Translations under genes and position numbers: made by a program
Shown here: one piece after another, positions 3,698 through 47,758 of the stretch
Numbering within the stretch: the first letter of the stretch is position 1
Layout of the letters: each line of letters opens with the position of its first letter
The notes under the pieces: model-generated
Databases searched by the model: none
What the model saw: only the letters and a program-made list of their open reading frames with translations
What the model was told of the DNA's origin: nothing
Assembly (NCBI RefSeq): GCF_002285435.1
Contig: NZ_NSBT01000037.1
Location: 1,006,313-1,070,312, forward strand
DNA: 64,000 nucleotides
Direction of reading: 5' to 3'
Source: Actibacterium ureilyticum
Lineage (GTDB): Bacteria > Pseudomonadota > Alphaproteobacteria > Rhodobacterales > Rhodobacteraceae

Positions 3698-4318
3698 ATG
3701 GCCGAGATCGAGCGTCCGCAGATTTACCTGATCACCCCGCCGGAATTCGAATTGTCGTCCTTCCCCGATCGGTTGGCGCGGGTGCTGGACGCGCACGAGA
3801 TCGCCTGTCTGCGCCTTTCGATGGCCAGCCGGGACGAGGACCGCGTGTCGCGCGCCGCCGATGCGCTGCGTGCCGTGGCCCATGCCCGCGACATCGCCAT
3901 CGCGATCGAGGAACATGTGCAGCTTGTGGAACGGCTGGGGCTGGACGGCGTACATCTGACCGATGGCGCACGTTCGGTCCGCAAGGTCCGCAAGGAGCTG
4001 GGCGCCGATGCCATCGTGGGGGCGTTCTGCGGCGCCTCACGCCATGACGGGATGAACGCGGGCGAGGCCGGGGTGGATTATGTCAGCTTCGGGCCGGTGG
4101 GCGCCACGGCGCTCGGCGATGGGGCGGTGGCCGAACCCGCGCTGTTCGCCTGGTGGTCCGAGATGATCGAGGTGCCGGTGGTCGCCGAAGGGGCGCTGTC
4201 GGTGGAAAGCGTGGCGCAACTGGCGCCGGTCACCGATTTCTTCGGCATCGGGGACGAGATCTGGGGCGCCGACGATCCGGCGGCGGCGCTTGGCGCGCTG
4301 ATCGCGGCCATGGGCTGA
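3698..4318 (+). CDS. Thiamine-phosphate synthase (ThiE)-family protein
   Basis: ORF 3599..4318; start set at MAEIERPQIYLITPP (GGAGAG RBS). IYLITP and ThiE-like TIM-barrel motifs are present. There is no TPP-riboswitch signature upstream. Confidence 0.6.
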   Translation: MAEIERPQIYLITPPEFELSSFPDRLARVLDAHEIACLRLSMASRDEDRVSRAADALRAVAHARDIAIAIEEHVQLVERLGLDGVHLTDGARSVRKVRKELGADAIVGAFCGASRHDGMNAGEAGVDYVSFGPVGATALGDGAVAEPALFAWWSEMIEVPVVAEGALSVESVAQLAPVTDFFGIGDEIWGADDPAAALGALIAAMG

Positions 4319-4398
4319 GCGCCGGTGCCGCCACGTCCGGCTTGCGTCAACGGTCCGCATCCGCCACGCCAAAAGGGACCCAGCCGGAGGAGCCCCGC

Positions 4399-8655: not shown

Positions 8656-11329
<2,674 letters not shown>

Positions 11330-11333
11330 CGGA

Positions 11334-11873
11334 TCAGCTCAGCTTCTTCAGATAGGTCCAGGTGGCGACATTGGCGTTGCGGGCCACGCTGAAGACCTCG
11401 GCATCGCCCAGGTATTCGAAGCCGGCATTGGTCAGCACACGGGCCGAACCGGGGTTGTCCTGAAACACCTTGGCAAAGACGGTCTTGTTGTCCAGCGGGT
11501 TGGCCTTCAGCAGGGCGCCCACTGCCTCGGACGCGATGCCGCTGTTCCAAAGCGCGGGCGCGACCCAATAGCCGATCTCGGACTGGTCGCGATCCAACCG
11601 CTTGAGCGAGATCACCCCCAGAAGCTCGCCCATCCCGCCGGCAGAGCCGTCCATGATCCAGACATCCTCGTCCCGATCATCGGACACTGACCGGGCGATG
11701 AACGCCTCGGCCGCGCCGGGCGGCAGCGGGTGCGGGATCGAGCTGGTATTGCGGGCGACACGTTCGTCCCCGGCATACATCCTGAGCAGCCCTTCGTCCG
11801 ATTTCCGCACGGGCCGCAGCCCGAACCGTTCCGCCGCGATGGTCGGCTGGTTCACAATCGCTTCAATAATCAT
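11334..11873 (-). CDS. GNAT family N-acetyltransferase (second, paralogous)
   Basis: Start at MIIEAIVNQ with a GGAGGAGGGAAGG RBS. The upstream part of ORF 11334..11993 lacks an RBS and has poor composition. Confidence 0.7.
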   Translation of the reverse strand: MIIEAIVNQPTIAAERFGLRPVRKSDEGLLRMYAGDERVARNTSSIPHPLPPGAAEAFIARSVSDDRDEDVWIMDGSAGGMGELLGVISLKRLDRDQSEIGYWVAPALWNSGIASEAVGALLKANPLDNKTVFAKVFQDNPGSARVLTNAGFEYLGDAEVFSVARNANVATWTYLKKLS

Positions 11874-12234
11874 GCCTTCCCTCCTCCGAAAACAATCGCG
11901 CGCCCCGGGGGACACACGGCACGGGCACGGCGCGCTGACGCCGGGCGGACGCAAGATGCCGAAATCCGGCACGCGCGGCCTTGCCAAGCCCAAGTGAAAT
12001 GGCGATCACCACCACCCCTTGCAAGAGATGCAGGTTCGCCAGCGCCTGCACCCCTCCCTGGTGCAGGCTCAGCGCCGCCTGGGGGTGCGAGCCGATCGAG
12101 GCCAGCGATCCGGGCGGCGGGCCGGACGACGCCATGCGCATCCCGGCCATCTTCAAACTCAGCCAGCACAGGGCAGCGGACGCCAGACCGATACAGGCGA
12201 CGGTGAAACCGGACCGGTGGCCGGTATCGGGCAT
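11863..12234 (-). CDS. Possible small membrane protein (two predicted TM helices), uncertain
   Basis: The minus-strand ORF has GC3-rich codons in its first ~80 codons and a GGGGA RBS before MPDTG. It begins right after the rpmA terminator and overlaps the GNAT start by 11 nt. Its later codons are AT-ending. Confidence 0.25.
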   Translation of the reverse strand: MPDTGHRSGFTVACIGLASAALCWLSLKMAGMRMASSGPPPGSLASIGSHPQAALSLHQGGVQALANLHLLQGVVVIAISLGLGKAARAGFRHLASARRQRAVPVPCVPRGARLFSEEGRHDY

Positions 12235-12296
12235 CGGGGGCGTCCCCGTCAGGATCGTCTGGTTCTGCAACATGCGTTTGACTGACTTAAACAAAA

Positions 12297-12335
12297 GAAG
12301 GGGGACCGGCTTGCGCCGATCCCCCCTGATATTTC
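12297..12335 (-). terminator. Rho-independent terminator downstream of rpmA
   Basis: The minus strand reads gggggatcggcgcaagccggtccccc followed by ttcttttgttt. Confidence 0.7.
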
Positions 12336-12353
12336 TTTTTCGCGGGTCTCGGC

Positions 12354-12623
12354 TTACTCAGCGGCCTCCGCCACCGGGAGAACCGAAATAAAGGTGCGGC
12401 CTTTCAGGCCCTTGTGGAAGGTCACCGCGCCTTCGACGGTTGCGAAGATGGTGTGATCCTTGCCCTGGCCCACGCCTTCACCCGGCCACCACTTATTGCC
12501 GCGCTGACGCACGATGATGTTGCCGGGGATGACGGCCTGGCCGCCGAATTTCTTTACACCAAGGCGGCGACCGGCTGAGTCGCGGCCGTTACGGGATGAA
12601 CCGCCTGCTTTCTTGTGTGCCAT
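12354..12623 (-). CDS. rpmA: 50S ribosomal protein L27
   Basis: 89 aa with canonical L27 sequence ([16 protein letters not shown]...). Confidence 0.95.
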
Positions 12624-12635
12624 TCCAGTCTCTCC

Positions 12636-13286
12636 TTAGCCTTTGGCCAGCTCTTTGGCCTGATCCACCCAGCCCTCACGCTCGATCCGGCCTTTGAACG
12701 ACAGTTTCTCGTCGAACTCGGCGATATCGGCTTCGGTCCAGGCAGCGATCTGTGCGAACGTGGTCACGCCAGCAGCCACCAGTTTCTTTTCCAGCGCCGG
12801 GCCCACGCCCGACAGTTTCTTCAGGTCGTCCGCGCCAGCATCCGCCTTGGGCGATTCGGCCTTGGCTTCGGCTTTCTTCGGGGCGGCCTTCTTCGGCGCT
12901 GCCTTGGGTGCCGGGGCCGCGGCGGCAACGGCCACGGCCGATGCGGCACCAACGGCGGCCTTCACGCCCGACTTGTCAGCACCCTTTTCCAGGATGTCGG
13001 TGATGCGCAGCAGCGTCAGTTGCTGGCGATGGCCACGGGTGCGCTTCGAGCTGTGCTTCCGGCGGCGCTTGACGAAGGTGATGGTCTTCGCGCCCTTGAT
13101 CTGTTCGATCACCTCGGCCTGCACGGCCGCGCCTTCGATGGTCGGCGTGCCGATCTGGTCACCCACCATCAGAATATCGTTGAATTGGACCTTGTCGCCA
13201 GCTTCGGCAGCCAGCTTTTCGACACGCAGTACATCGCCGCTTTGCACTTTGTACTGCTTGCCGCCTGTTTTCAGGACCGCAAACAT
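12636..13286 (-). CDS. rplU: 50S ribosomal protein L21 with a ~110-aa C-terminal Ala/Lys/Pro-rich and HhH-like extension
   Basis: The N-terminal 103 aa are canonical L21 ([14 protein letters not shown]...). The C-terminus carries an [10 protein letters not shown] low-complexity linker and an [15 protein letters not shown]...[15 protein letters not shown] domain. Confidence 0.9.
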
Positions 13287-13647
13287 CGGGTCTTTCCTTT
13301 GTCTATCCGCGTCCTGTGGCCCCGCCGGTGCGGTGTTGGATGCATCTGCGCCATCGGACAGCGCGCCCCGTTCAGGGCGTCATTTCACGAATCCACACCG
13401 GACAAACCCGGTGCAGAGGCCGCTATATCCCGAAAGATCGCCCGCAAGTCAACCCTGAATAGCCGCCGCGCCCGCCGCTCACATTGCCGTGACCGACAGG
13501 ATTATCCCCGCCCCCTTGGCGTTGATCCCCCTGTGCGGGCGCGATCGCTCTGCCCGCGCTCAATGCTCCTCAATCCGCTTCGGTCCCGGGCCACCGGGTC
13601 CGAAGCAATCCCTTTTGCAACCCCTTACCCCCCTCAGGACAAGATCC

Positions 13648-14415
13648 ATGCCCCATTCCCCCCGTTTCGCACCCGCGCTGGCCATCGGCGCGTTCCTGCT
13701 GGCCGCCGCCAGCCCTGCCGCCGCCGATCTGGCGCTGTTCGGCCCCGGCGGTCCCGCCCCCGCGATGAAAGAGGCCGCCGCCGCATTCACCGCCGAAACC
13801 GGCATCCCCGTCAGCGTCACCGCCGGCCCGGCGGGCAAGTGGATGTCCGACGCGCAGATGCAGGCCGACGCGATCTTTACCGGCTCGCAGAACATGATGG
13901 ACGATTTCGTCGTGGCCCATGGCGCCACCCTGCCCGAGACAATCACGCCGCTGTTCCTGCGCCCCTCGGCCATTCTGGTGCGCAAGGGCAATCCCGACGG
14001 CATCAGCGGCCTGCGCGACCTGATCGAGCGTGACCTGAAATTCATGGTGGTCGATGGCGCGGGCCAGGTCGGCCTGTGGGAGGACATGGTCGGCCGCACC
14101 CGCAACATCGCCGACATGGCCGCCTTTCGCGGCAGCATCGACCATCTGGCGCCCAACAGCGGCGCGGCGCGCAAGCTGTGGACCGAAGATGACAGCTTTC
14201 AGGCCTGGCTGATCTGGAACCACTGGCAGATCGACAACCCCGATATCGCCGACATGGTTGCGGTCGAACCCGATCTGGCGGTCTATCGCGACACCTCGAT
14301 CGTCACGACGCAGAAAGGGGCCGAAAACCCCGATCTGGCGGCGTTTCTGGCGTATCTGGACAGCGATGCGGGCGTGGCGATCTTTGCCGCCCATGGCTGG
14401 CAGAAAAGCTTCTGA
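13648..14415 (+). CDS. Periplasmic substrate-binding protein, ModA/WtpA-like PBP2 fold (orphan)
   Basis: Signal peptide MPHSPRFAPALAIGAFLLAAASPAAA followed by a PBP-like domain. No ABC permease or ATPase is adjacent. Confidence 0.55.
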   Translation: MPHSPRFAPALAIGAFLLAAASPAAADLALFGPGGPAPAMKEAAAAFTAETGIPVSVTAGPAGKWMSDAQMQADAIFTGSQNMMDDFVVAHGATLPETITPLFLRPSAILVRKGNPDGISGLRDLIERDLKFMVVDGAGQVGLWEDMVGRTRNIADMAAFRGSIDHLAPNSGAARKLWTEDDSFQAWLIWNHWQIDNPDIADMVAVEPDLAVYRDTSIVTTQKGAENPDLAAFLAYLDSDAGVAIFAAHGWQKSF

Positions 14416-14460
14416 GCCTGCTCCCGTCCCGGCGCGCACCCCGCGCCGGGACCCGGGGGC

Positions 14461-15282
14461 TCAGATATCCTCGCCCACGATCATCTTGGCCGCGGCCAAT
14501 CCAAGCTCGCGCGAGATCCGGCGATACAATACGTCGAATGCCGAAAACAGCGCCCGGTTCAGCGCCTGGCCCTCGGGCGTTTCCGACATGTCGATATAGT
14601 CGGTCAGTTCGGCATCCGACAGCGGCTTATACGCCAGCGCCAGATAGGAATAGAGCCAATCCTGGGTCTCGGCCTCGATCTCGGCCTCCTGCGACCAGAC
14701 ATCGGCCAGGATCTGATCCTCGGTCATCTCGAACGGGAACGCGCCGCCATCGGTCAGGCCGATATAGAATTCATAGTTGGAGTTCAGCGCCCCCGACAGG
14801 TTCAGGTCCACCAGATCGTTGGCATCGATGAACTGCCCCACCAGATCCAGACGCGGATCGGCATCGTCGCGCAGTTCCTGCAGCTTTTCCAAGCTGGCCT
14901 CCTCGGCGCCCGGCTCCAGCAGCGCCCGCCGCGCGGACACTTCCAGATCGGTCACCCGCGCGCCCGGACCGTCCGAGTAATAGGCCACCAGCGGCGCCAG
15001 ATCGACATCGGCCAACGCGGCGCGCATGCCGTCCTGCATGATTTCGTCCATCCGCTCGGTGCTGTAGATCCGCGCCACCATCGCCGCCCAGCGGTCGCCG
15101 CCGCGTTCGGGGAACATCTCGCCCTGGATCTCGTCGCCATAGCTCATCCCCTCTTCGCGCATGATGTCCAGCAGGTCCGCCATGTGCAGCGCCTGGTACA
15201 GGCGGTCGAACTGGGCATCCGATTGCGCCGCAAGACGCAACGGGAAAAGCAGAAGGATGATCAGAAGAAAAGCGCGCGCCAT
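14461..15282 (-). CDS. Hypothetical secreted acidic protein (possibly DUF2059-like)
   Basis: 273 aa with an N-terminal signal peptide MARAFLLIILLLFPLRLAA and a consistent GC3-rich frame. Confidence 0.5.
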   Translation of the reverse strand: MARAFLLIILLLFPLRLAAQSDAQFDRLYQALHMADLLDIMREEGMSYGDEIQGEMFPERGGDRWAAMVARIYSTERMDEIMQDGMRAALADVDLAPLVAYYSDGPGARVTDLEVSARRALLEPGAEEASLEKLQELRDDADPRLDLVGQFIDANDLVDLNLSGALNSNYEFYIGLTDGGAFPFEMTEDQILADVWSQEAEIEAETQDWLYSYLALAYKPLSDAELTDYIDMSETPEGQALNRALFSAFDVLYRRISRELGLAAAKMIVGEDI

Positions 15283-15441
15283 ATCGGTGTCCCATGAAAA
15301 TACCCCCGAAATCTAAGCACAGCACGCGCCGCTGCCAACCCGTTGCACGGCCTCTGCGAAAGAGATTTCCGATCTCGGCGAAAAACCGGTTGCGCTGTTT
15401 GGCGCTTGCCCTTAAATCAGCCGCTCACGGACTACACGTGC

Positions 15442-15531
15442 GGAGAGGTGCCGGAGTGGTCGAACGGGGCGGTCTCGAAAACCGTTGTGGGTGCAAGCCC
15501 ACCCAGGGTTCGAATCCCTGTCTCTCCGCCA
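15442..15531 (+). tRNA. tRNA-Ser (anticodon CGA)
   Basis: Cloverleaf with acceptor GGAGAGG/CCTCTCC, a long variable arm, anticodon loop CTCGAAA, T-loop GGTTCGAATCC and an encoded CCA. Confidence 0.85.
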
Positions 15532-15727
15532 TTATCCCCCCCTAACATCGCAGCCCCGCGCCTTGGGCTCGGGGCTTTCCCCAGCCGACCGCGACGCGCG
15601 CCGCTCTTGTGGCGAAACGCCGCGTTTTGGTGGTGTAACCGCGTCCTGGCGATTTTTCGCGACGGAACCTCACAACTTTGCCGTTAGGGATGCAAAGGCC
15701 AATCGTGCCGGATGTGAGGGTAAGCAG

Positions 15728-16976
15728 ATGGGTTCCGACGACAAAGACATTTCCACAACCATCGGTCTGGGCCGAAAGCGGCGGGTGCCGTGGCTGGCGA
15801 TTGCCGGGGGGCTTGCCGTTGTGGTGGCCGGCGCGGTCTGGTTCTGGATGCAGGATGACGGCGCGGCTGGCACACAATATGTGACACGCCCGGTCGAGCG
15901 GGCGTCGTTCGATGTCACGGTCTCGGCCGTGGGGTCGATCGAGCCCACGGACATGTTCGACATCTCGTCCGAGCTTTCGGGGACCATCGACGACGTTCTG
16001 GTCGATTTCAATGACGAGGTCGCGGTCGGCACGGTGCTGGCGCGTCTGGACACCACGAAGCTGGAAGCCGAACGCGCGGTCAAGCAGGCCTCGGTCGAGA
16101 ATGCGATTGCCGGCGTGGCGATGGCCGAAGCCTCGTTGCAGGAGGCGCAGGAGCTTTACGAGCGCGGATTGGAGTTGAAGGCGCGGGGCGTGGAATCCGA
16201 GACCACCTTCATCGCGCAAGAGGCCGCCTATGTCCGCGCCGCGGCCGAGCTGAAGGCGGCGCAGGCGTCGCAGCGGGTGGCCGAGGCGAACCTGGAATAC
16301 GTCAAGGTCGATCTGGAAAAATCCTGCATCTGCAGCCCGGTGGACGGTGTCGTGCTGGACCGTGCGGTCGAGCCGGGGCAGATCGTCGCCGCCTCGCTTT
16401 CGGCGCCGACGCTGTTTACCGTGGCCGAGGATCTGACGCGGATGGAGCTGCAGGTCTATGTCGACGAGGCCGATATCGGCAAGGTCGCCGTGGGCCAGAA
16501 CGCCACATTCACCGTCGATGCCTATGACGAGCGCAGCTTTCCGGCGGATATCTTCCAGGTGCGTTTCGCCAGCGAGACCGTCGATGGCGTCGTCAGCTAC
16601 AAGGCGATCCTGAGCGTCGACAACTCGGACCTGTCCTTGCGGCCGGGCATGACGGCATCGGCCGATATCGTGGTCGCCGCGGTGCAAGATGCGCTGGTGG
16701 TGCCCAATGCCGCGCTGCGCTATGCCCCCGCGACGCAAGAGGCCGAAACGACCCAGAGCGGATCCCGCAGCGGGCTTGTCGGGATGATCATGCCGGGCCG
16801 GCCCGGGGGCGGTCAGCGGACGGTCGCGACCGAAACGGTGCAAAGCACGGTTCATGTGCTGCGCGGCGGGGTGCCGGTGGCGATCGACGTGCAGGTGGGG
16901 GAAACCGACGGTTCGGTGACGGCGATCGTGACGACCGAACTGGCCGAGGGCGACCTGGTGATCACGGATCAGACCG

Positions 16977-16987
<11 letters not shown>
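15728..16987 (+). CDS. Efflux transporter periplasmic adaptor subunit (HlyD/MacA family)
   Basis: N-terminal TM anchor, coiled-coil and beta-barrel adaptor domains; GAGGG RBS before MGSDDKD. Followed by the ABC ATPase and FtsX permease. Confidence 0.8.
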
Positions 16988-17680
<693 letters not shown>

Positions 17681-17684
<4 letters not shown>

Positions 17685-18892
17685 TGCTTTGGGAAACCAT
17701 CAAACTGGCGGTGCAGTCGATCCTGCGCAACCCGATGCGCAGCTTTCTGACCATCCTGGGCGTGGTGATCGGCGTGGCCGCGGTGATTGCGATGGTAACG
17801 GTTGGCAACGGTTCGTCGGCGCAGGTGACGACCGATGTCGAAAGCCTGGGCGCGAACCTGCTGACATTGCGGCCCGGTCAGGACCGGATGGGACCGGGCA
17901 GCGATCAGGGCGGCGCGGCGCGGCCCTTTGACCTGGACGATATCGACCGCATCCTGGATCAGATCGGCGCCATCTCGGTCGCGGTGCCCACCGGTTCGCA
18001 AACCATTGTCGCCGTGTTCGAGGGCGAGAATTACCAGACCACCGTCACCGGCACCCAGAACGGCTATTTCGAGGCCAAGGACTGGGCGCTGAGCGCCGGG
18101 CGGCTGTTCTCGAGCTCGGAGGAAAGCGGCAAGACCGCCTGCATCATCGGCCAGACCGTGCGCGAGGAGCTGATGGGCAGCGCCGATCCCATCGGCCGCA
18201 AGATCCGGATCGACAACCTGAACTGTACCGTCGTCGGGCTGCTCGAGGCCAAGGGGGCGAACACCTTCGGCCAGGATCAGGACGACACCGTCATCATGCC
18301 GTTCAAGACCTTTGCCCGCCGGATCGCGGGATCGACCGATGTCTCGTCGATCACGCTGTCGGTGCGCGACGGCTATTCCACTGACCGGGCCATCGACGAC
18401 CTGACCAACCTGATGCGCGAGATCCGCCGCATCCAACCCGGCGATGACGACGATTTCTCGATCCGCGACACCGAACAGCTGGCCAACATGCTGGGCAGCG
18501 TCACGTCGGTTCTGACCGGGCTGCTGTCGGCGGTGGCGGCGGTCAGCCTGCTGGTGGGCGGGATCGGGATCATGAACATCATGCTGGTGTCGGTCACCGA
18601 ACGCACCCGTGAAATCGGCATCCGCATGGCGGTGGGCGCACAGGCCAGCCAGGTGCTGCTGCAATTTTTGGTCGAGGCGATTGTCCTGTCGGCCCTGGGC
18701 GGCGTGATCGGCATTGCCCTGGGGCTGGCGATGGGGGCCATCGGCTCATCGATGCTGAACGTGCCCTTCATCCCCGATCCGGGCACCATCGCGCTGGCCT
18801 TCGGGTTTTCGGCGGTGGTGGGCATCGTCTTCGGCTATTTCCCCGCCCGCGCCGCGGCCCGTCTGGACCCGATCGAGGCCCTGCGCCACTAG
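17681..18892 (+). CDS. ABC transporter permease (FtsX/MacB-like)
   Basis: 403 aa with MacB_PCD-like periplasmic domain and FtsX C-terminal 3-TM bundle. Confidence 0.85.
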
Positions 18893-18948
18893 CGCATCGC
18901 ACCCTACCCGGGTTGATGCGGCTTATGGACGCGGGTCTTTGGGGTGGG

Positions 18949-19038
18949 TGGCGGAGACGAAGGGATTCGAACCCTCGAGACGGTTTCCCGCCTACTCCCT
19001 TAGCAGGGGAGCGCCTTCGACCACTCGGCCACGTCTCC
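18949..19038 (-). tRNA. tRNA-Ser (anticodon GCT)
   Basis: Minus-strand cloverleaf with acceptor GGAGACG/CGTCTCC, anticodon loop CTGCTAA, a long variable arm and an encoded CCA. Confidence 0.8.
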
Positions 19039-19054
19039 GCCGACCCGTGTATCG

Positions 19055-19075
19055 GCCCCGTGCGGCGAAAACAAG
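19055..19075. terminator. Hairpin GGCCGAttgTCGGCC flanked by T-rich tracts, likely a bidirectional terminator
   Basis: Perfect 6-bp stem with T-runs on both strands; lies between the end of the secreted-protein gene and the tRNA-Ser. Confidence 0.5.
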
Positions 19076-19102
19076 AGCGAAATTGGCCGATTGTCGGCCC
19101 GT

Positions 19103-20956
19103 TTATTTGTCGAGCCGCAGCGCGTCGATCAGCGAGGGCACGGCCGCGTCGGCACTGGGCAATTCGGCATCCAGCAAAATCGTGCGCTCTGCCGCGGCCT
19201 CGCCGTTGCGACCCGAGAACACCTGGATGCGCACCGGGCGGTGGGTGGCGATCAGTTCCAGATAGTTCTGGTTCACGTTCTGGAAATTTCCGGCCACCAT
19301 TTCGGCCGACAGGCGGAACTCGAAATTACCGTTGTTCTGCGCGGCCTGGGTGAATTGCGCGGCCTCGGCCGGGGTCATCTTCAGTTCGGTCAGGTTCGGA
19401 AAGAACGTGTTGCGCATGTTGAAGCCCAGCTGAAGCGCGTCGAATTGCTGGTATTGTGCGTTCAGTCCCTGCAGCGGCATCACCTTGCGCACGGGATCAT
19501 AGGTGCCGATGCGCAGCGTGCCGCGAAAGCTCATCATCCGCGGCCCCTTGGTTTCGCCCAGCGCGGCGAAGGCCTCGGCGCGGCGGGCGTCGGGGTTGGG
19601 CTGGCCCAGGGCATAGGCATCGGCCAGCGCCTTGGCGGCGGCCTCGTTGCCATTGATTGCGTTGACGGCGCGCACGAAATCCTCGCCGCCCGATATCGGC
19701 TGACCCAGGTAAAGCGCGGCCTTGTCCGCCTGTTGCTGGCGCGCCTTCAGGACCGGGGTGAAATCATACAGCACCTGGCTGAGCCCCTGATCGGCAAAAA
19801 GCGCGATCTGCACCAATTGGGTGTGCATGCCCGGGCGGCTGTTGCCATAGCTTTGCTTGATCGACGGCGGCAGCTCGGGGTCGATCTCGGCGAAGACCGC
19901 CATGTAGAGCCGTGTGTCGTTGCGGCTGCGCAGATAGGCGTCCAGCTGCCGGGCCTGTTCGACGCTGGTCTTCAGCTCGGACGGCAGGACGATCGAATCG
20001 AAGGCATTGCGCAGCGACACCGCGTTCCACTGGGCGCCGGGATGGTTGCGCAGCCCACTGGCATTCAGCGGAAACGCCCCGGTTTCAAAGCTGTATTCGC
20101 CCAGCTGGACCGGCACCGAATGATAGACCTTGATCGGCCCGGTCTGGCGCCGCTGATCCAGCCCCGGTTTCAGCTGGGTGCGGATGCGGTTGGCCAGATC
20201 GCGGCGTTCAAACACCGAAAGCTGCGACAGGTGCTTGCCCGCATAGGGGCCCATCAGCTGCTGATGTTCGGCAGGTGTCAGCATCTGTTCGACCAGCGCC
20301 ATCGCCATCTGGTCGTCGTTCAGCATCTGCGGCCGCTCGGCATAGGCCCGGGCGGCCAGCACCCGCTGCCAGATCCGGTCATTGCCAAGCGCGAAATGCC
20401 CGCGCACCGATGCGACCGAGCCAAAGAGCGGCGTGAATTGTTCGAAACTCAGGCCCGGGGCGACCTTGGGGCGCTCTGGCACCACGGGCTCGGCCGGTTT
20501 GGCGGGCGCCGCGGCTTCGGCGGTCTTGGCGGGGGCCGTCTTGGCCGCGACAGGCTGCGGGGCAACGGCGGGTTCGGTCACGGCGGCAACCGGCGTATCG
20601 GCGGATTTGGGCGCCGGGGTCGCGGGATCCAGGCGCCAGTCCCGGTCGCGCGTCACGTCGAAGCTGAAATCGATGCCGCGAAAGCTGCCCTTTACCGTCA
20701 GCGCGTCGATATCGGGACAGCTTTTGCCCAAGCCCCCGGCCATGCGTGCCACCAGATCGACCACCGCCTTGCGGTCGTCGGAAAACAGCACCACCGCCGG
20801 CCCCTCGAGCGTGAATTCGGGTGGGGATTTGCACGAGATCGCCGAGGGCGCCCAGATCGTGAACCCCGATGCGGAAAGTTCGGTTCTGTCCTTGGCCGCC
20901 ACGGCCGATGCGGCCAGAATACCCGCAGCCGCGATCCGAAAAGTCGTGCAAAACAT
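19103..20956 (-). CDS. Large secreted hypothetical protein (617 aa) with signal peptide, N-terminal domain, Pro/Ala-rich linker and a ~430-aa C-terminal domain
   Basis: ATG at 20956 behind a GGGGAAA RBS, then MFCTTFRIAAAGILAASAVAA signal peptide. A PAPKSADTPVAAVTEPAVAPQPVAAKTAPAKTAEAAAPAKPAEP linker follows. No recognisable catalytic motifs. Confidence 0.7.
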   Translation of the reverse strand: MFCTTFRIAAAGILAASAVAAKDRTELSASGFTIWAPSAISCKSPPEFTLEGPAVVLFSDDRKAVVDLVARMAGGLGKSCPDIDALTVKGSFRGIDFSFDVTRDRDWRLDPATPAPKSADTPVAAVTEPAVAPQPVAAKTAPAKTAEAAAPAKPAEPVVPERPKVAPGLSFEQFTPLFGSVASVRGHFALGNDRIWQRVLAARAYAERPQMLNDDQMAMALVEQMLTPAEHQQLMGPYAGKHLSQLSVFERRDLANRIRTQLKPGLDQRRQTGPIKVYHSVPVQLGEYSFETGAFPLNASGLRNHPGAQWNAVSLRNAFDSIVLPSELKTSVEQARQLDAYLRSRNDTRLYMAVFAEIDPELPPSIKQSYGNSRPGMHTQLVQIALFADQGLSQVLYDFTPVLKARQQQADKAALYLGQPISGGEDFVRAVNAINGNEAAAKALADAYALGQPNPDARRAEAFAALGETKGPRMMSFRGTLRIGTYDPVRKVMPLQGLNAQYQQFDALQLGFNMRNTFFPNLTELKMTPAEAAQFTQAAQNNGNFEFRLSAEMVAGNFQNVNQNYLELIATHRPVRIQVFSGRNGEAAAERTILLDAELPSADAAVPSLIDALRLDK

Positions 20957-41251: not shown

Positions 41252-41365
41252 GCGTCACTCTCCCTCAAAGCTTTGCCCGCCTGATAGCGCAGCGAAACGG
41301 GGCCGTCCATGCGCGACCGCCCCCTTCATTGCTCGAAAAATACTCCCGCCGGAGGCGTCCCGCCC

Positions 41366-42121
41366 TCACCGCCGCCGGAACGTCAGGTAATGCGGCACCC
41401 GCCCCTCGCGCAGGGCCTTCTGTTCATACCGGGTCGAGATCCAGTCGCCCCAGGGCTGCCGCCAGTCATCGGGGCGCTCTGCCAGCCAGTCGAACCCGTG
41501 ACGCGGTACCTGTTCCAGCGTCTGGCGCACATAATCGGGAATGTCGGTCGCCACGCGAAAGATCGCGCCGGGTTTCAACACCCGGTGCAGCGGCGCCAGA
41601 TATTCCGGCGTCACGAAACGCCGCCGGTGATGGCGCTTCTTTGGCCAGGGATCGGGATAAAGCAGGAACGCCCGGGCAATCGAGGCATCGGGCAACACAT
41701 CGAACATGTCGCGCACATCGCCGGGATGCACGGCCACATTGTCCGTGCCCGCATCGCGGATCTTGCCCAGCAGCATCGCCACACCGTTGATGAAAGGCTC
41801 GCAGCCGATGATCCCCACATCGGGGTTCTGCGCGGCCTGATGCACCATATGCTCGCCACCGCCAAAGCCGATTTCCAGCCACACATCCCGCTCGCCGAAC
41901 AGCGCCGACAGGTCGATGGGGGTGCGATCTGGGTTTTCTTCCCACCCGACCGGGCCGGGGGACAGGGCCGCCAGGTCCTGGTCCAGGTATTCCTTCTGGC
42001 TGTCGCGCAGGGTCTTGCCCTTGAAACGACCATAGAAGTTGCGCCACGGGGCGCCCGAGGGATGCTTGCCATTGCTCATGGCCGCGCGGTTTAGCGCCCA
42101 TTGGCCCCCGGCACAATCCAT
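41366..42121 (-). CDS. trmB: tRNA (guanine46-N7)-methyltransferase
   Basis: TrmB SAM-MTase motifs (LEIGFGGGEH, YPDPWPKKRHHRRR). Start either 42121 (GAAGG RBS) or 42079. Confidence 0.85.
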   Translation of the reverse strand: MDCAGGQWALNRAAMSNGKHPSGAPWRNFYGRFKGKTLRDSQKEYLDQDLAALSPGPVGWEENPDRTPIDLSALFGERDVWLEIGFGGGEHMVHQAAQNPDVGIIGCEPFINGVAMLLGKIRDAGTDNVAVHPGDVRDMFDVLPDASIARAFLLYPDPWPKKRHHRRRFVTPEYLAPLHRVLKPGAIFRVATDIPDYVRQTLEQVPRHGFDWLAERPDDWRQPWGDWISTRYEQKALREGRVPHYLTFRRR

Positions 42122-42177
42122 CAGCGCGGGCCTTCAGCGCGGGCGCGCCGCCGAAACACGCGCCCGCAGATCAGCGA

Positions 42178-45100
42178 TCAGTCGTCGTCCATCGCGTCGA
42201 CCACCTCGCTGACCTTGTCATAGATGTCCTTGACCTCGTCGATCACCTCGCTGATCGGCGGGTTGGGAATGTGCTCCAGGATTTCCTGCGCGGTGTTTTC
42301 AATGATCTCGCCAATCGGGCCACGATCTTTGCTTTCGATCCATTTGCTGACCGTACCGGTGGGGTCTCGAACGAAATTCTCGCCCTCTTCCACCACGTCA
42401 TCGACGAAATCACCGACCTGATCGCCGATGCTTTCATCCTCGTCCTCATCCTCGCACTTGTCGCCGCGCGCCTTCTCGTCCTCCAGCTCCTGTTCGGTGC
42501 GCTCGGCTTCCGCGTCCTCCAGCTCTTCCTGACGTGCCAGGATCGCCTCGGCCTCGGCCTTGACTTCGGCGGCCTTTTCCAGCGCGGCGTCATAATCGCC
42601 AGCCACTCCCAGGCTCTTCGCGTCTTCATAAAGACCGCGCAGCGCCTCTGCCCGAACAGCCAAATCCTCGGGTTCGGTCACGGCAACCGCACGGGTATAG
42701 ACACTCAGCAGCCCGCTCATGCGTTCATCGAACCGGATCTTGTCGCCCTGCAGCGCCTCTTCGGCCTTGTCGAACGCCGCCAGCGCGCCTTCGACCTCGG
42801 CGGCCTTCTGGATCGCGCGGCGATAGTCATTGTCGTCTTCGACAATGTCCTTCATCGTCTTGAACGCCGCTGTCACCGCATTCAACAGGGGCACGAGCTC
42901 TTCTTCCGAGGTATTTGGCGACCCTTCGGCCGCCGTCACGCGCGGCTGAAGCGACTCCAGCTTGCCCTCGTATTCTGCCTTCAACTCGCCTTCGGTTTTC
43001 AGCGCGTCCTCCAGCAGGCGCATCTTTTCGTTGAATGCCGACAGCTTGTCGGTGATCGCATCCAGATCATCGCCATTCAGCACGCCCTCAAGCGCCTCTT
43101 TCGCGCCTTCGGCAGCCTTGTATTCATCCTCGGCGCGACCCTCGGCATCGCTTGGCAGCGCCTCCCAACGGCGCAGCGCAGCGCGGGCTTCGGCGATCTT
43201 CTTCTCTTTCGCGACCAGCAGCTCGGAATGGCGATCCTCGATATTCTGCGCCCGGCGCATCAGTTCTTCGGCCTTGGATTTGGCTTCGGCATAATTCTCG
43301 GTGCCTGCCGCCGTTTCCATCGCGGATTTCAGATCGTCGAGCTCGCCTGCCGCCTTCGACAGCTCTTCGAACTCTTCGGCCTTTTCCTTGGCATTGTCAT
43401 AGGCGGCAATCGCCAGGTCGCGCACGATCTCATAGGCTTCGCGGGCATCGCCGAACTGGTCGACCTTTTCCAAGTACTTGTCGATCAGCGCATTGACCTC
43501 GTCGGCCTTGGCAACGGCGTCGATATATTCGTCGGCATCGCCCAGCGCGGTCATTGCGTCATGGCCCTGGATCACCGCGTCGGCGGCGGATTGCGCTTCT
43601 TCGATGGTATTGGCCCGCACCACGGCGATCTTGTCGGCCATATCGGCGGCCAGCTTTTCATAGACGGCCTTTTGCAGCGTCAACTGTTCGTTCAGCGCAA
43701 CGATGGCGGTCAGCTTACCCTCCAGCTGCTCCATCTTCGTCATCGCCTCGCGCAGGCGTGCCGCGGCGGCGTCGGCCTGCATCGCGGTGTAAAGGTCCTC
43801 GATCTCCTGCTTGTCGTCGATGAGCGATTTGAAGGTGAAGCCGCGCGCGGTTTCAACGCGCGGTTCGACCAGTGCAAGGCGGCGCTTGTATTCCTTCAGC
43901 AGGGCTCCCAGCACCTGAAACTCGGCCAGTGGCGCGATCAGCGCGGTCGCCTTCTGTACGGCGGTCTGGTAATCCGTCGCCTCGGCGGCGGCCAGCATCT
44001 CGTCCCGCAGCGCCAGGATCTCGGCCTTTTTACCGGCCAGTTCCTCGTGATCGCAGGATTCCACATCCTCGATCTGACCCTTGATCGAGTCATAGAGCGC
44101 CTCGTACTGGACGCGCAGCGCCTCCAGATCGCCCATGCGGGCCTCCAGATCGTTCAGCTTGCGCTCGATGGCGTTCAGGTGATCCAGCGCGGTCGGAAAA
44201 TCCAGCGCGGTCGCGGCCTGTTCCATGTTGGCGCGCAGCGTCGTCAACTCGCCCCGCACCGGTTCCAGCTCGGCGAAATCGCATTGCATCAGCCCGTCGA
44301 ACCGCGCAATCAACGGCGGCATCCGGGTTTCAAATTCGGCCCGCGCGGCATCCAGACTGTCGCGAGTCGCCTCGATCCCGTCCAGCGCGACCGCCAGTTG
44401 GTCCAGCATCGTCAGCGCCTGGATGTAATCGCCCTGCGTCACCGCATCCTCGATCTGCGTGCGCAGATCGATCAGTGCCTGATGATCGGGCAAAAGCTGC
44501 GGGTATTCGCATTGCGACACGCCATCGCAGCGCGCCAGCACATCCGGCGACCGGCGCTCGTATTCCTCCCTAGCCGCATCCTGCGCCGCGATCAGCCCCA
44601 TCAGCGCGGCGATCTGCCCCTCGGCGGTCTGCAACAGCGCAATCGCCTGGATATAGTCGCCTGCGGCGGCTGCGGATTCCGCCTGTGCTTTCAAATCCGT
44701 AATCGCGATGCTCATGTCATCCAGCACCGGATAGGTGCAGACGGCGGCATCGGCAAATTGCGGTTCCAGCCGCGCCAGAAGCTCTTCGAATTCACGGCCC
44801 AGACGGGCCTGTTCCAACTCGACCAGATAGGCGTCGATCATCTGCACCAGACCATCCATCTCGCTCAGCGCGGTCTCGTAGTCGTGGTTGGTCGCCGCCG
44901 CGTGCATCCGGTCGGCCGAGGCATTGATATCGCTCTGCTGCTGCGCCAGCGCCGGGAACTCGGTGGTCTGGCACTGGGCCAGATCGGCCTCGACCCCCGG
45001 CAGGCGGGAGTCATAAATCTCCTGCTCGGTCGCGGATTCCTCGAACGCGGTGAGGAACGTGTCGATCTTGCCCGACAGGTCCGCAATCATCTCAAGCGCG

Positions 45101-45912
45101 CGGGCATAGTCGCCCTCTGCCGCCACGGTCGGGATCTGTTCCGACAGCGCGATGATATCTTCCTGCATCGGCACCAGATCGGGATATTCGCAGGTGGCCG
45201 TCTGATGCAGGCGCGGCTGGATCGCGGCCCATTCGCCATCGTATTGCTCGGCCTGCAGGCGCAGGGTTTCAAGGTCGATCTCGACCTGCTCCAAGCGCAG
45301 CACCAATTCCCGCAACAGTTCCAACGCGCTGACATAGTTCACCGCATCCACGTCGGTCTGGATCGGCGGCAGGCCCGCCTCGATGCCCGCCAGATCGTTG
45401 CAGATCTGGTCGCTGATCGGGGGGGCGCCATTCGCGGTCTGCATGCGGGTGTCGAAATCGGCGCGCAGGGTTTCATAGTCGGCCTTGGCCTGAGATTGCA
45501 GAAGATAGTCGTCATAGACCGGGCCCATCGTGGTTTCGGCCTGATCCAGCGCCGTGGTCGCATCGGCCCAGCGCTGATCGTCCACGCACTCGCCAATCGC
45601 GGCGACCTCGTCCTCGACCCCGCCGGCATCGGGATGGCCAAAGGCGCGCAGATCATCCAACCGCGAGCGCAACTGCGAATAATCCCGCGCGCGCCCTTCC
45701 CAGATATTGCGGTTACGCTCGATCTCGGCCCGAAGGTCGGCAATCACCTGTTTTAACTGGTCGATCTTGCCCGCGATCCGGTCAAGCTGCGCCTGTTCGT
45801 CCCGGTCGATCGTGCCGTCAGACATGAAGTCTCTGCGCATCTTGCGTTCTTCGGAAACAAGCGTGTTCGACTGCCGCTCGGCAGCCTCGATCTGTTCAAT
45901 CTTGGGGTTCAT
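42178..45912 (-). CDS. Giant acidic alpha-helical repeat protein (1244 aa): ~8 tandem ~76-aa repeats each starting C-(E/T)-(Y/F)-P and containing GDY..A..L, followed by a coiled-coil region and an Asp/Glu-rich C-terminal tail; unknown function
   Basis: ATG at 45912 behind a GAGGA RBS (ORF extends to a GTG at 45933). No signal peptide or TM. Ala/Glu/Asp/Leu-dominated. Repeats include CEYPDL...GDYARALEM, CTYPVL...GDYIQAIAL, CEYPQL...GDYIQALTM and CDFAEL...LDFPTALDH. Tail EDEDEDESIGDQVGDFVDDVVEEGENF...DAMDDD. Confidence 0.8.
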   Translation of the reverse strand: MNPKIEQIEAAERQSNTLVSEERKMRRDFMSDGTIDRDEQAQLDRIAGKIDQLKQVIADLRAEIERNRNIWEGRARDYSQLRSRLDDLRAFGHPDAGGVEDEVAAIGECVDDQRWADATTALDQAETTMGPVYDDYLLQSQAKADYETLRADFDTRMQTANGAPPISDQICNDLAGIEAGLPPIQTDVDAVNYVSALELLRELVLRLEQVEIDLETLRLQAEQYDGEWAAIQPRLHQTATCEYPDLVPMQEDIIALSEQIPTVAAEGDYARALEMIADLSGKIDTFLTAFEESATEQEIYDSRLPGVEADLAQCQTTEFPALAQQQSDINASADRMHAAATNHDYETALSEMDGLVQMIDAYLVELEQARLGREFEELLARLEPQFADAAVCTYPVLDDMSIAITDLKAQAESAAAAGDYIQAIALLQTAEGQIAALMGLIAAQDAAREEYERRSPDVLARCDGVSQCEYPQLLPDHQALIDLRTQIEDAVTQGDYIQALTMLDQLAVALDGIEATRDSLDAARAEFETRMPPLIARFDGLMQCDFAELEPVRGELTTLRANMEQAATALDFPTALDHLNAIERKLNDLEARMGDLEALRVQYEALYDSIKGQIEDVESCDHEELAGKKAEILALRDEMLAAAEATDYQTAVQKATALIAPLAEFQVLGALLKEYKRRLALVEPRVETARGFTFKSLIDDKQEIEDLYTAMQADAAAARLREAMTKMEQLEGKLTAIVALNEQLTLQKAVYEKLAADMADKIAVVRANTIEEAQSAADAVIQGHDAMTALGDADEYIDAVAKADEVNALIDKYLEKVDQFGDAREAYEIVRDLAIAAYDNAKEKAEEFEELSKAAGELDDLKSAMETAAGTENYAEAKSKAEELMRRAQNIEDRHSELLVAKEKKIAEARAALRRWEALPSDAEGRAEDEYKAAEGAKEALEGVLNGDDLDAITDKLSAFNEKMRLLEDALKTEGELKAEYEGKLESLQPRVTAAEGSPNTSEEELVPLLNAVTAAFKTMKDIVEDDNDYRRAIQKAAEVEGALAAFDKAEEALQGDKIRFDERMSGLLSVYTRAVAVTEPEDLAVRAEALRGLYEDAKSLGVAGDYDAALEKAAEVKAEAEAILARQEELEDAEAERTEQELEDEKARGDKCEDEDEDESIGDQVGDFVDDVVEEGENFVRDPTGTVSKWIESKDRGPIGEIIENTAQEILEHIPNPPISEVIDEVKDIYDKVSEVVDAMDDD

Positions 45913-46177
45913 GGTGTCCTCGATGAATGTCACGCGCGGCGCTGTGAAAGGGCCGCTGAAAAGCTAGGGATTTACAAAATTGGGTGGGCCGAAACGGGCC
46001 CGGGACGATGAAGCGAAACTGACGGAACGGTCCTTGTGAAACGATGGGTGGTTAATTCGAGGTCTTTAAAAATCGGTCTTTGAATGGCGCCCAATCTAGC
46101 GCGAAATCCGGTTCCAGACAATCCTCTGGTGCCAGAAGCCACGGCGCAGGGGGCTGCCCCCGCGCCGTGTCCGGTGG

Positions 46178-47758
46178 TTATTTCTGCACGATACGGCCGT
46201 CCAGATAGGGGGCATAGGGGCCGGATTCGGCCAGGTATTCCGCCGTCACATCGGCCAGGTCGGGGCCGAAATCATAGGCGTTCATCCCCTCGGACGAGAA
46301 CATCTTGTACCCGTCGCCGCCGTTGCGGACGTAGTTGTTGGTCACCACGCCATAGACGCCTTCGGGATCGATGGGCGCCCAGCCGTCGCCGTCCTTGACC
46401 AGCACCTCGGTGATGCGCCCCTCGCCCGCGGCGACAGACGGATCCCAGGTGAATTTCATCCCCGCGACCTGCGGGAAGCGGCCTGCGCCCTCCTCGACCT
46501 GGCTCACGCCGTTTTCCAGCGCGTCGATGATGGTCTGGCCCTTGGCTTGGAAGGTCGACAGGGTGTTCTGGAACGGCAGCACGGTCAGAACCTCGCCCAT
46601 CGTCACCTCGCCCGCGTCGATGCTGGCACGCAGCCCGCCCGAGTTCGCAATCGAGATGGTCACGCCCTGATCGGCCACGCGGGCCAGCATGGCATCGGCC
46701 ACCAGGTTGCCCATCGCGCATTCCTGCACGCGGCAGACCGAGCGGTCGCCCTCGATGGCATCGGCGGCCTGGGCCACGACCTTGCTGCGGATTTCCTCCA
46801 GCGGGGTGGCCAGCTCGGCGATGCGCGACACGGTGCCTGCGTCTTCGGTCACGGCGGCATCCATGACCAGCGGCTCGCCCACGGCCTCGGTGATCTCACC
46901 CGCGTCGTTGAAGGTCACGTTCAGCTCGCCCAGGAATTTGCCATAGGCATAGGCCTGCACGATGGCGGTATTGCCGACCATGGTCGGGTACGGACCCTTG
47001 GCGTCTTCGGACGTGTTGGACAGATAGGTGTTGTCATGGCCGCCCACGATCACGTCGACCCCGGTGGTTTCGGCGGCAACCTTCTGGTCGACACCATAGC
47101 CCGAGTGGCTGAGCACGATGATCTTGTTCACGCCCATCTCGGTCAGCTTGTCGACCTCGCCCTGGACCGCCTGTGCGGGATCGGTGAAGATCACGTTCGG
47201 GCCGGGGCTGGCCAGTTCATCGGTGTCCTGCGGGGTCAGGCCGATCAGGCCCAGCTTCTCACCGCCACGCTCGATCACGGTGGATTTCGCCAGCTTGTCC
47301 GACAGCAGCGGCTCGCCCGAGACATCGGCATTCGACATCAGCACGGGGAAATCGACGGCATCCATGAAGCCGCGCAGAACCTCGGGGCCATCGTCGAACT
47401 CGTGGTTGCCCACGGTCATCGCGTCATAGCCGAGCTTGTTCATCATCTCGGCCGCGACCTTGCCCTTGTAATAGGTATAGAACAGCGTGCCCTGGAACTG
47501 GTCGCCGCCATCGACAAGGATATAGTTGTTGGTGCGCTGCTTGGCGGCCTCGACCGCCGTGACCAGACGCGCGGTGCCGCCGAAACACTTGCCCTCGGCA
47601 TTGTCCTCGGCGCTGCAGGCGCTGTCATATTTCGAAATCGGCTCGAAACGGGCATGGAAATCATTGGTGTGCAGAATTGTCAGCGAATAATCCGCCAGCG
47701 CGGCGCCGGACCCCAGCGTGATGGCAACTGCGGTTGAGGAAAGTAAGCGAATGGACAT
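46178..47758 (-). CDS. Periplasmic bifunctional 5'-nucleotidase/UDP-sugar hydrolase family metallophosphatase
   Basis: Signal peptide MSIRLLSSTAVAITLGSGAALA; HTNDFH and GNHEFD metallophosphatase motifs; 5'-nucleotidase C-terminal domain; GGGAGA RBS. Confidence 0.85.
   Translation of the reverse strand: MSIRLLSSTAVAITLGSGAALADYSLTILHTNDFHARFEPISKYDSACSAEDNAEGKCFGGTARLVTAVEAAKQRTNNYILVDGGDQFQGTLFYTYYKGKVAAEMMNKLGYDAMTVGNHEFDDGPEVLRGFMDAVDFPVLMSNADVSGEPLLSDKLAKSTVIERGGEKLGLIGLTPQDTDELASPGPNVIFTDPAQAVQGEVDKLTEMGVNKIIVLSHSGYGVDQKVAAETTGVDVIVGGHDNTYLSNTSEDAKGPYPTMVGNTAIVQAYAYGKFLGELNVTFNDAGEITEAVGEPLVMDAAVTEDAGTVSRIAELATPLEEIRSKVVAQAADAIEGDRSVCRVQECAMGNLVADAMLARVADQGVTISIANSGGLRASIDAGEVTMGEVLTVLPFQNTLSTFQAKGQTIIDALENGVSQVEEGAGRFPQVAGMKFTWDPSVAAGEGRITEVLVKDGDGWAPIDPEGVYGVVTNNYVRNGGDGYKMFSSEGMNAYDFGPDLADVTAEYLAESGPYAPYLDGRIVQK

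Follow-up and report, generated by a model that had tools for sequence, protein, structure and literature searches.

Spectrin repeats of eukaryotes have a canonical length of ~106 amino acids (aa) and can form long arrays (4–20 repeats). EzrA, a "spectrin-like regulator of bacterial cytokinesis", has five repeats of ~100 aa, an N-terminal transmembrane (TM) anchor and a C-terminal four-helix bundle, and was presented in 2014 as the sole known bacterial example of spectrin-like repeats (PMC4243239). The N-terminal domain of BB0323 from Borrelia burgdorferi (BB0323-N) also has the spectrin-repeat fold, which is rare in bacteria (PMC12758692). The subject here is a protein of 1,244 aa encoded in a stretch of 64,000 nucleotides of Actibacterium ureilyticum (assembly GCF_002285435.1, contig NZ_NSBT01000037.1, positions 1,006,313 to 1,070,312), hereafter called the window. 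Judged from structure models, this window protein is most likely a compact spectrin-like rod, built from tandem repeats of ~76 aa.

The window protein is established as a member of a repeat family. It consists almost entirely of spectrin-like units, which are preceded by a shorter form of the family's N-terminal module and followed by an acidic tail, modelled with low confidence, in the slot where homologues carry a payload; no small open reading frame (ORF) comes after the gene. The earlier note on this DNA, made from its letters alone, had called the family unrecognisable, and nothing above threshold was indeed found in Pfam (2025), NCBIfam (2026), PADLOC, PHROGs or the sequences of the PDB (phmmer over all PDB chains). 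Spectrin-like rods and polymorphic effectors are each already known kinds of protein. The literature searched held no description of the repeat family, and the combination of a 76-aa spectrin-like repeat that is recognisable in sequence and strung into as many as 17 units, a new N-terminal module with a partner gene and unassigned payload domains was not found described.

Repeat array and predicted fold

Comparison of the window protein with itself in 80-aa tiles by BLAST gave many off-diagonal matches at multiples of ~76 residues, with E values down to 2e-16. A hidden Markov model (HMM) built from six central units found 15 units between residues ~15 and ~1154, of which 13 have E<1e-3, the six seed units among them. 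The units begin near residues 15, 87, 165, 241, 317, 392, 468, 544, 620, 692, 768, 846, 921, 1001 and 1079, a spacing of 72–80 aa, and their consensus reads [C/S]-[E/D]-[Y/F]-P-x-L ... M-x-x-a-A-x-x-G-D-Y-x-x-A-L ... Y-E-x-R. Units 1 and 2 are weak repeat matches and overlap the N-terminal module. The repeats thus lie far above chance and the all-helical tandem-repeat protein described before is real, as are the eight or more repeats then counted; their confinement to residues ~100–720 is not. The C-terminal ~450 aa, formerly taken for a coiled coil, are diverged copies of the same unit in both self-BLAST and HMM, as illustrated by the matches of residues 239–299 with 1077–1143 and of 694–748 with 848–902.

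All full-length homologues also have 15 units, and 15 matched stretches were returned in orthologues by the exhaustive profile search described below. Repeats 4–9 span exactly 451 aa in the window protein and in 11 of the 13 other long orthologues, at 29–59% identity. No tandem repeats exist at the DNA level in the repeat gene, and 12 of the 15 units have their best match in the positionally equivalent unit of a 37%-identical orthologue (P0005; family proteins are numbered P and loci L), from which it follows that the array is old and collinear.

An AlphaFold2 model of the core repeats, residues 241–691, for which six-repeat blocks of orthologues and paralogues were aligned, has a mean predicted local distance difference test score (pLDDT) of 92.4. 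In this model a ~22-residue helix, a 3-residue turn at GDY and a helix of 44–48 residues alternate strictly. A second model, of residues 1002–1244, has the same pattern of helix, turn and long helix in units 14 and 15, at pLDDT 90–98. From these models we conclude that each 76-aa unit would give one short and one long helix, the long helix bridging two successive three-helix bundles. The repeat unit is accordingly modelled as an antiparallel three-helix bundle, the fold of the spectrin-like class. That class has a repeat of ~100–106 residues and a Pfam match as further marks; here the period is 72–80 aa and the window protein has no match to PF00435 or PF06160. Taking 15 units of ~3.3 nm each, the predicted rod would be ~45–55 nm long if straight.

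The closest structural matches of the models are EzrA and BB0323-N. The comparison with the cytoplasmic domain of EzrA (PDB 4uxv, 4uy3) is one of five repeats of ~100 aa plus anchor against ~15 repeats of 76 aa that are clear in sequence and have no anchor. There is no significant sequence similarity to EzrA, and besides the missing PF06160 match in the window protein, the family member P0021 scores 23.8 bits against the cut-off of 39.6. Sequence identity between BB0323-N (PDB 6rjw, 6rjx) and the window protein is 9–11%. BB0323-N is, unlike the window protein, a periplasmic or outer-membrane-associated lipoprotein domain of about two bundles only, with a LysM C-terminal part. Like spectrin, α-actinin and dystrophin, the modelled protein would have serial three-helix bundles that make up a rod of set length and keep the functional domains at its ends apart; a Pfam Spectrin match is absent from the window protein, and the likeness concerns the predicted architecture.

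The GDY-x2-A segment had been called reminiscent of TPR. At the level of the motif this is right, since the helix-turn-helix aA-x-x-GDY-x-x-A-l resembles the A/B hairpin consensus of TPR, PPR and Sel1 repeats. The unit itself is not a TPR: it is predicted to be a two-helix element of 22 + 46 residues that builds three-helix bundles, compared with two helices of ~14 residues in TPR, PPR and Sel1, and its period is 76 aa as against 34–36. No Pfam match to any of the three was found in the window protein. An apparent homology to designer PPR proteins (PDB profile E 2e-14) was rejected, since nine matches of ~5 bits each, all to a single hairpin motif of 24 residues, add up to it; the motif around GDY alone explains both these matches and the TPR-like impression. 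Other candidates were likewise discarded. The sub-threshold Pfam, NCBIfam and PDB matches to Rab11-FIP3, ASRP and DUF465 are coiled-coil noise. The PADLOC matches to LmuB and JetC (E 1e-4 to 1e-11 in homologues) align only to SMC-like coiled-coil arms and are compositional, and matches to Rad50, SMC and SbcC fall in the same class. An organiser of the PopZ or crescentin type, as suggested in the earlier note, finds no support in the Pfam scan, which gave no match, or in the models, in which bundles are segmented by turns every ~76 aa and do not form an uninterrupted coiled coil. A role as scaffold or rod is structurally plausible for the predicted fold.

Composition of the repeat family

A word-indexed search returned only six clusters at 90% identity for the window protein: A. 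ureilyticum itself, two at 83–87%, a protein from a Sulfitobacter metagenome-assembled genome (MAG) at 57%, a 1,322-aa protein at 37%, and a 714-aa protein whose common ground is the N-terminal 450 residues only, followed by an HEVGH motif. Across 185,579 genomes, each standing for one species, three loci were detected, all from Rhodobacterales or alphaproteobacterial MAGs. With so few loci the gene is rare and not a conserved housekeeping gene, let alone the universally conserved annotated gene that had been named beforehand as the alternative. A profile of 48 units, searched exhaustively with HMMER against 1.84 billion representative proteins, reached much further, to 274 proteins with E<1e-3 (182 with E<1e-10, 99 with E<1e-30). 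These family proteins carry 2–17 units. One genome (assembly GCA_021776195.1, loci L003 and L017) has two long members, P0007 with 17 repeats and P0012 with 14 repeats and no tail, so paralogues can coexist. Relatives of either N-terminal type were absent from the viral contigs scanned and the window protein has no PHROG match, and a phage origin was rejected.

Unit numbers and both termini were analysed in the 154 proteins retrieved of the 274. The unit numbers are bimodal, 4–9 on the one side and 13–17 on the other. The N-terminal module is the best-conserved region among distant homologues and exists in two types: type A of ~130 aa (GLKxxWGVxDP ... GSDxQ..F..F ... N..LQYTA..AE) and the shorter type B, to which the window protein belongs. 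Residues 18–97 of type B align with residues 56–140 of type A in hhalign (probability 97%, E 4e-11, 80 columns), implying one N-terminal module with or without an extension of ~55 residues. All type-A hits are metagenome fragments; at one of them, L009, the family gene is adjoined by DUF1501 and DUF1800 genes (L009:5164-8760), which are typical of Planctomycetes-like genomes.

Behind the repeats the family is polymorphic. Tails of at least 120 aa follow the last repeat in 103 of the 154 proteins and separate in BLAST into no fewer than 30 clusters that are unrelated to one another, so that at family level a common N-terminal and central region is combined with diverse, unrelated C-termini, as in polymorphic toxins. 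The largest cluster has 30 proteins, 28 with HExxH, and its invariant residues are H-E-x-x-H-x-x-Q ... P-x-E-x-x-S-R. This payload is found behind both type-A and type-B N-termini, and its profile gave only faint zincin hints (M13, DUF6782, M60) against PDB and Pfam. Many of the HExxH domains end in natural His-rich tails (HHHHHH, DHDHDHDHEH, GHGHGP, HGHTH; in P0029, P0059, P0048, P0057, P0100 and P0109), for which metal capture is one possibility. Among the remaining clusters are some that have the look of an anthrax-lethal-factor-type zincin (THE[S/A]MHG ... EETYAESAARYY), consist of Gly/Ala-rich hydrophobic domains that look membrane-active, or contain a possible papain-like domain. Since none of these domains reaches a family threshold, toxin-like is here a term of architecture only, referring to HExxH, hydrophobic Gly/Ala-rich segments, polymorphism and small downstream ORFs. 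Two such ORFs, of 111 and 146 aa and 30% identical to each other, lie 8–16 bp downstream of the type-B HExxH members P0046 and P0048, the classic position of immunity genes, and are candidates for that role. Small downstream ORFs are also present at the family genes of loci L008 and L010.

The slot of these domains is occupied in the window protein by its 90-aa acidic tail, which has predicted helices without a confident fold, is probably disordered according to the model, and has no family match in Pfam. Long orthologues have a related and often longer acidic tail with the loose pattern ...DDG...D-x-x-D-K...L-D-G-D/E...h-P....

A link with secretion is seen in homologues. A metagenome scan with the type-A N-domain gave six loci. 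At L008 the family gene, P0027 (891 aa), comes eighth among closely packed genes on one strand, in the order TssM/IcmF, TagF, fused TssB-TssC, three unknown ORFs, a partner of ~430 aa, P0027 and an ORF of 177 aa; these are genes of a type VI secretion system (T6SS) as far as TssM/IcmF (three Pfam domains, E 1e-88 to 1e-19), TagF (E 9e-38) and the fused protein are concerned. The last is a single 608-aa ORF on the plus strand of this metagenome contig (L008:4392-6218) with TssB/VipA (residues 24–117) and TssC/VipB N-terminal (200–471) domains, looks like a fused T6SS sheath protein and adjoins TssM and TagF (L008:190-3789 and 3790-4395).

In five type-A loci, and at every type-A gene examined, the partner gene immediately precedes the family gene (Table); it is a candidate adaptor or chaperone. 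Its product has an acidic low-complexity middle and a C-terminal part of 140 aa that is 70–78% identical between loci, and has no match in Pfam, NCBIfam or PHROG. Homology of the partner to the type-B N-terminus was considered and rejected (hhalign probability <1%). Partner paralogues, for example L008:13638-15140 with PG_binding_1, precede other genes of no known family. Two family genes stand in tandem at L010. At L018, three consecutive genes all open with the type-A N-domain and differ in their bodies: PG_binding_1 with Pro-rich regions, 13 repeats with a ParB-like end, and CarboxypepD_reg/PEGA/PG_binding_1, respectively. The N-domain therefore also exists without a repeat rod. Large RTX-type genes (HemolysinCabind) adjoin family genes at two unrelated loci, L002:4811-7627 (minus strand) and L019:7298-10690 (minus strand), which could be coincidence or a hint of a secreted-protein neighbourhood.

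By analogy, T6SS cargo-effector classes present the same picture: one N-terminal domain joined to varied bodies, a partner that resembles an adaptor, and a T6SS operon. The described systems nearest to it are polymorphic toxins with N-terminal trafficking domains, such as MIX, FIX, RIX and WHIX of the T6SS and LXG of the type VII secretion system. Like them the repeat family has a conserved N-module, a variable C-terminus and a small downstream ORF, the partner gene upstream is reminiscent of an adaptor, a T6SS operon contains one member, and the N-terminal part is long and helical as in LXG toxins. The spacer is different, a spectrin-like array and not Rhs/YD, FilH or a simple linker. Also different is the window protein itself, which lacks a toxin domain, an immunity gene and a partner gene and has no gene of the T6SS in the 64 kb around it.

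Gene and neighbourhood in A. ureilyticum

The ORF at 42178–45933 of the minus strand exists as noted before. Its first in-frame start is GTG 45933. ATG 45912 is likelier, since GAGGA lies 4 nt ahead of it and every orthologue begins at the matching Met (MNPK/MNVK), which gives the 1,244 aa. The product is 100% identical to a hypothetical protein of A. ureilyticum (P0001). Its composition is acidic and rich in Ala, Glu, Leu and Asp, as stated earlier, with Ala at 15.7% rather than 17% (Glu 12.5%, Leu 10.1%, Asp 9.9%); the pI is 4.26 and the net charge −152. Acidity is a trait of the whole family, with a median net charge of −6.9 per 100 aa in the 154 proteins analysed, as against −11.2 in the window protein. 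The reported lack of a signal peptide or TM segment holds: Kyte-Doolittle means over 19 residues peak at 1.45, the N-terminal sequence MNPKIEQIEAAERQ is hydrophilic, and an N-terminal TM anchor of the EzrA type is absent. A scan of 41900–46400 gave no sigma-70-like promoter. An antisense ORF of 1161 aa on the plus strand (42271–45756) mirrors nearly the whole repeat gene and is most likely an artefact of a coding strand that is poor in stop codons, high in GC and rich in GAx and GCx. The features are listed in the Table.

Table. Features of the repeat gene and of related loci; positions without a locus name are those of the window
Feature	Position	Strand	Basis or remark
Coding sequence of the acidic repeat protein, 1,244 aa	42181..45912	−	ORF list, translation; stop TGA at 42178–42180
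Shine-Dalgarno-like GAGGA	45917..45921	−	4 nt 5' of ATG 45912; read from sequence
N-terminal module type B, residues 1–97	45622..45912	−	homologous to type-A residues 56–140
~15 tandem ~76-aa repeats, residues 15–1154	42451..45870	−	self-BLAST, seed HMM, iterated HMM
Best-conserved core repeats 4–9, residues 241–691	43840..45192	−	serial helix(22)-turn-helix(46) units in the model
Acidic C-terminal tail, residues 1155–1244, net charge −24	42181..42450	−	AlphaFold2 pLDDT 39–54 from about residue 1157
9-bp perfect inverted repeat GCGGGCGCG / CGCGCCCGC, 11-nt loop	42139..42167	−	between stop codon and trmB
Partner gene, L008	L008:8633-9937
Partner gene, L010	L010:5638-6876
Partner gene, L011	L011:814-2103
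Partner gene, L007	L007:39-716		partial
Partner gene, L012	L012:1168-1779		partial
Three consecutive genes opening with the type-A N-domain	L018:7261-9681, 9792-14504, 14855-19615

The neighbours were named correctly as a 5'-nucleotidase (Metallophos + 5_nucleotid_C), trmB (Methyltransf_4) and aroA (EPSP_synthase). Downstream of the repeat gene the perfect 9-bp stem-loop that had been reported is present, with its arms ~8 nt away from where they had been placed, at 42139–42147 and 42159–42167. It folds no better than shuffles (z +0.89), making its significance doubtful, and as a terminator it was rejected on this fold score, on the lack of a U-tract and on a terminator scan that does not call it. 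The 83%-identical relative has retained synteny with trmB and aroA, which is lost at 57% identity and below. In that relative (L022:4345-6423) the stop of the repeat gene is followed at 4 bp by the start of trmB, suggesting that the two are co-transcribed, and a gene for an HSP70/MreB-like protein lies on the opposite strand between trmB and aroA. In the window (41252–42180) a gap of 56 nt with the hairpin precedes trmB, and no gene lies between trmB and aroA.

Function of the window protein

The toxin-like, polymorphic C-termini of the homologues and the one member in a T6SS operon shift the interpretation towards an export-associated family of modular carriers, of which the window protein may be a payload-less arm of fixed length. 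This is the interpretation preferred here, tentatively and at somewhat less than an even chance. In such a carrier the conserved N-module would be the docking or recognition end, binding a partner or an export apparatus, the repeat rod would be a spacer that sets a distance, and the C-terminal slot would hold an exchangeable payload, be it HExxH zincin-like, membrane-active-looking or other. The window protein, with a helical N-module of ~95 residues, ~15 serial three-helix bundles as modelled, an acidic tail of ~90 residues and no recognisable catalytic domain, would not be a toxin; as a fixed-length arm it would present its tail after non-Sec export or at the envelope. The conserved 451-aa span of repeats 4–9 and the bimodal unit numbers speak for a constrained rod length. 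Its export, the docking role of its N-module and a binding role of its tail are inferred. A bolder formulation, doubtful though worth stating, is that the repeat marks an undescribed class of exported polymorphic effectors on spectrin-like rods, having an N-terminal trafficking domain and an upstream-encoded adaptor of their own and using the T6SS in at least some lineages; the payload-less form of Rhodobacterales with its 15 repeats would then be a ruler or arm of ~50 nm presenting an acidic tail.

Several results weigh against the carrier interpretation. No C-terminal domain of the homologues reaches a Pfam or PDB family threshold or matches any curated family of toxins. At its C-terminus the window protein carries no toxin domain, and the stop codon of its gene is followed by the hairpin and trmB with no small ORF or immunity gene between them; the long orthologues have no immunity gene either. 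The T6SS neighbourhood was seen at one locus only (L008). About 12 other family loci, among them the window, L001–L006, L017, L019 and every type-B long-form locus, have housekeeping, metabolic or regulatory neighbours and lack secretion genes. A tblastn comparison of TssM, TssBC and the partner with the 64-kb window gave no match. T6SS marker or loading domains (PAAR, MIX, FIX, RIX, WHIX, an adaptor of DUF4123 or DUF1795 type) were found neither in the window protein nor in homologues or the partner by Pfam and NCBIfam scans, in which models for the newest markers are possibly absent. Because the window protein is without the first ~55 type-A residues, the partner gene and a payload, the argument for export of the family may not apply to it.

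As the main rival proposal, the window protein would be a purely cytoplasmic scaffold or ruler, spectrin-like in the manner of EzrA. The rod would link or space parts of the cell, for example the envelope, the division machinery or polar complexes, the tail would recruit partners, and the enzymatic ends of homologues would be enzymes tethered to a scaffold rather than secreted toxins. Both of the closest structural matches, EzrA and BB0323-N, are scaffolding or interaction proteins, rod length is strictly conserved among the long orthologues, and the housekeeping context, with trmB conserved as neighbour in the 83%-identical relative, agrees with this proposal, as do the missing signal peptide, toxin domain and immunity gene. 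However, there is no membrane anchor as in EzrA, synteny is lost at 57% identity, and so rare and patchy a gene (six clusters, three loci among the species genomes) would be odd for a core cytoskeletal element. At least 30 unrelated C-termini, small ORFs after HExxH members and a member in a T6SS operon are, moreover, hallmarks of conflict systems, and a scaffold of this kind is considered rather unlikely, while still a serious contender. That the window protein is a substrate of type I or another one-step secretion system, forming a surface or extracellular fibre with the acidic tail as uncleaved secretion signal, is improbable. It would fit a very acidic protein with few Cys and no N-terminal signal, the acidic amphipathic C-terminus conserved in the long subfamily, and the HemolysinCabind genes beside family genes at L002 and L019. 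The window protein nevertheless has neither RTX Gly-Asp nonapeptide repeats nor a HemolysinCabind match, ATP-binding cassette (ABC) and membrane fusion protein (MFP) export genes are adjacent in none of the loci scanned, and a C-terminal signal is hard to square with more than 30 interchangeable C-termini in the family.

Defence is an even less probable function. In an anti-phage or abortive-infection family the rod would sense the invader and the variable C-terminus would kill the cell, the window protein being a degenerate member or a decoy. Defence systems, too, typically join a conserved sensor-like N-terminal region to exchangeable effector-like C-termini (HExxH, hydrophobic), and several paralogues per genome point in the same direction. 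Against this, PADLOC gave only the weak coiled-coil matches to LmuB and JetC in their SMC-like arms, signalling domains, NTPases included, are absent, the family loci are not defence islands, some N-domain proteins have peptidoglycan-binding domains and one member is in a T6SS operon, and viral contigs hold no relatives. The earlier note had also considered an acidic metal- or Ca2+-binding protein in which Cys residues at the repeat starts coordinate a ligand. High Asp and Glu content and the regular spacing of Cys at six unit starts would speak for it. Nearly all cysteines were then said to sit at repeat starts; in fact six of ten are exactly there (residues 241, 314, 392, 468, 544 and 620). 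In the 14 long orthologues these columns read C/S/T/A, with Cys in three of 14 at 544, six at 392 and one at 314, and only columns 241 and 620 are mostly Cys. As Cys alternates with Ser in orthologues, the unit-start cysteines are unlikely to be metal ligands, and the idea that conserved Cys positions coordinate something is not supported; by its sequence pattern the column behaves as a small helix N-cap residue. With a single Cys for every 76 aa, placed where the first helix is N-capped ([CS]-[ED]-[YF]-P-x-L), these residues would be an estimated ~3 nm apart along the rod, judged from predicted helix lengths. Acidity, furthermore, is family-wide, and the Pfam scan of the window protein found no EF-hand or RTX motif. 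Metal binding is consequently by far the least credible of these proposals.

Whatever its function, a 76-aa version of the spectrin-like repeat occurs ~15 times in this one protein, and the family, of at least 274 sequence clusters, lies outside every curated library searched. Membership in it accounts for an otherwise opaque gene of 3.7 kb beside trmB and aroA in A. ureilyticum. If the carrier interpretation is true, the family would provide a new type of scaffold, a new N-terminal marker for finding effectors in metagenomes, and a natural protein rod of fixed length. It would also provide a set of uncharacterised payload domains, among them a new HExxH domain with candidate immunity proteins. 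Under the bolder formulation, serial spectrin-like repeats, in bacteria so far essentially those of EzrA and BB0323 only, would be a recurrent building block of conflict systems.

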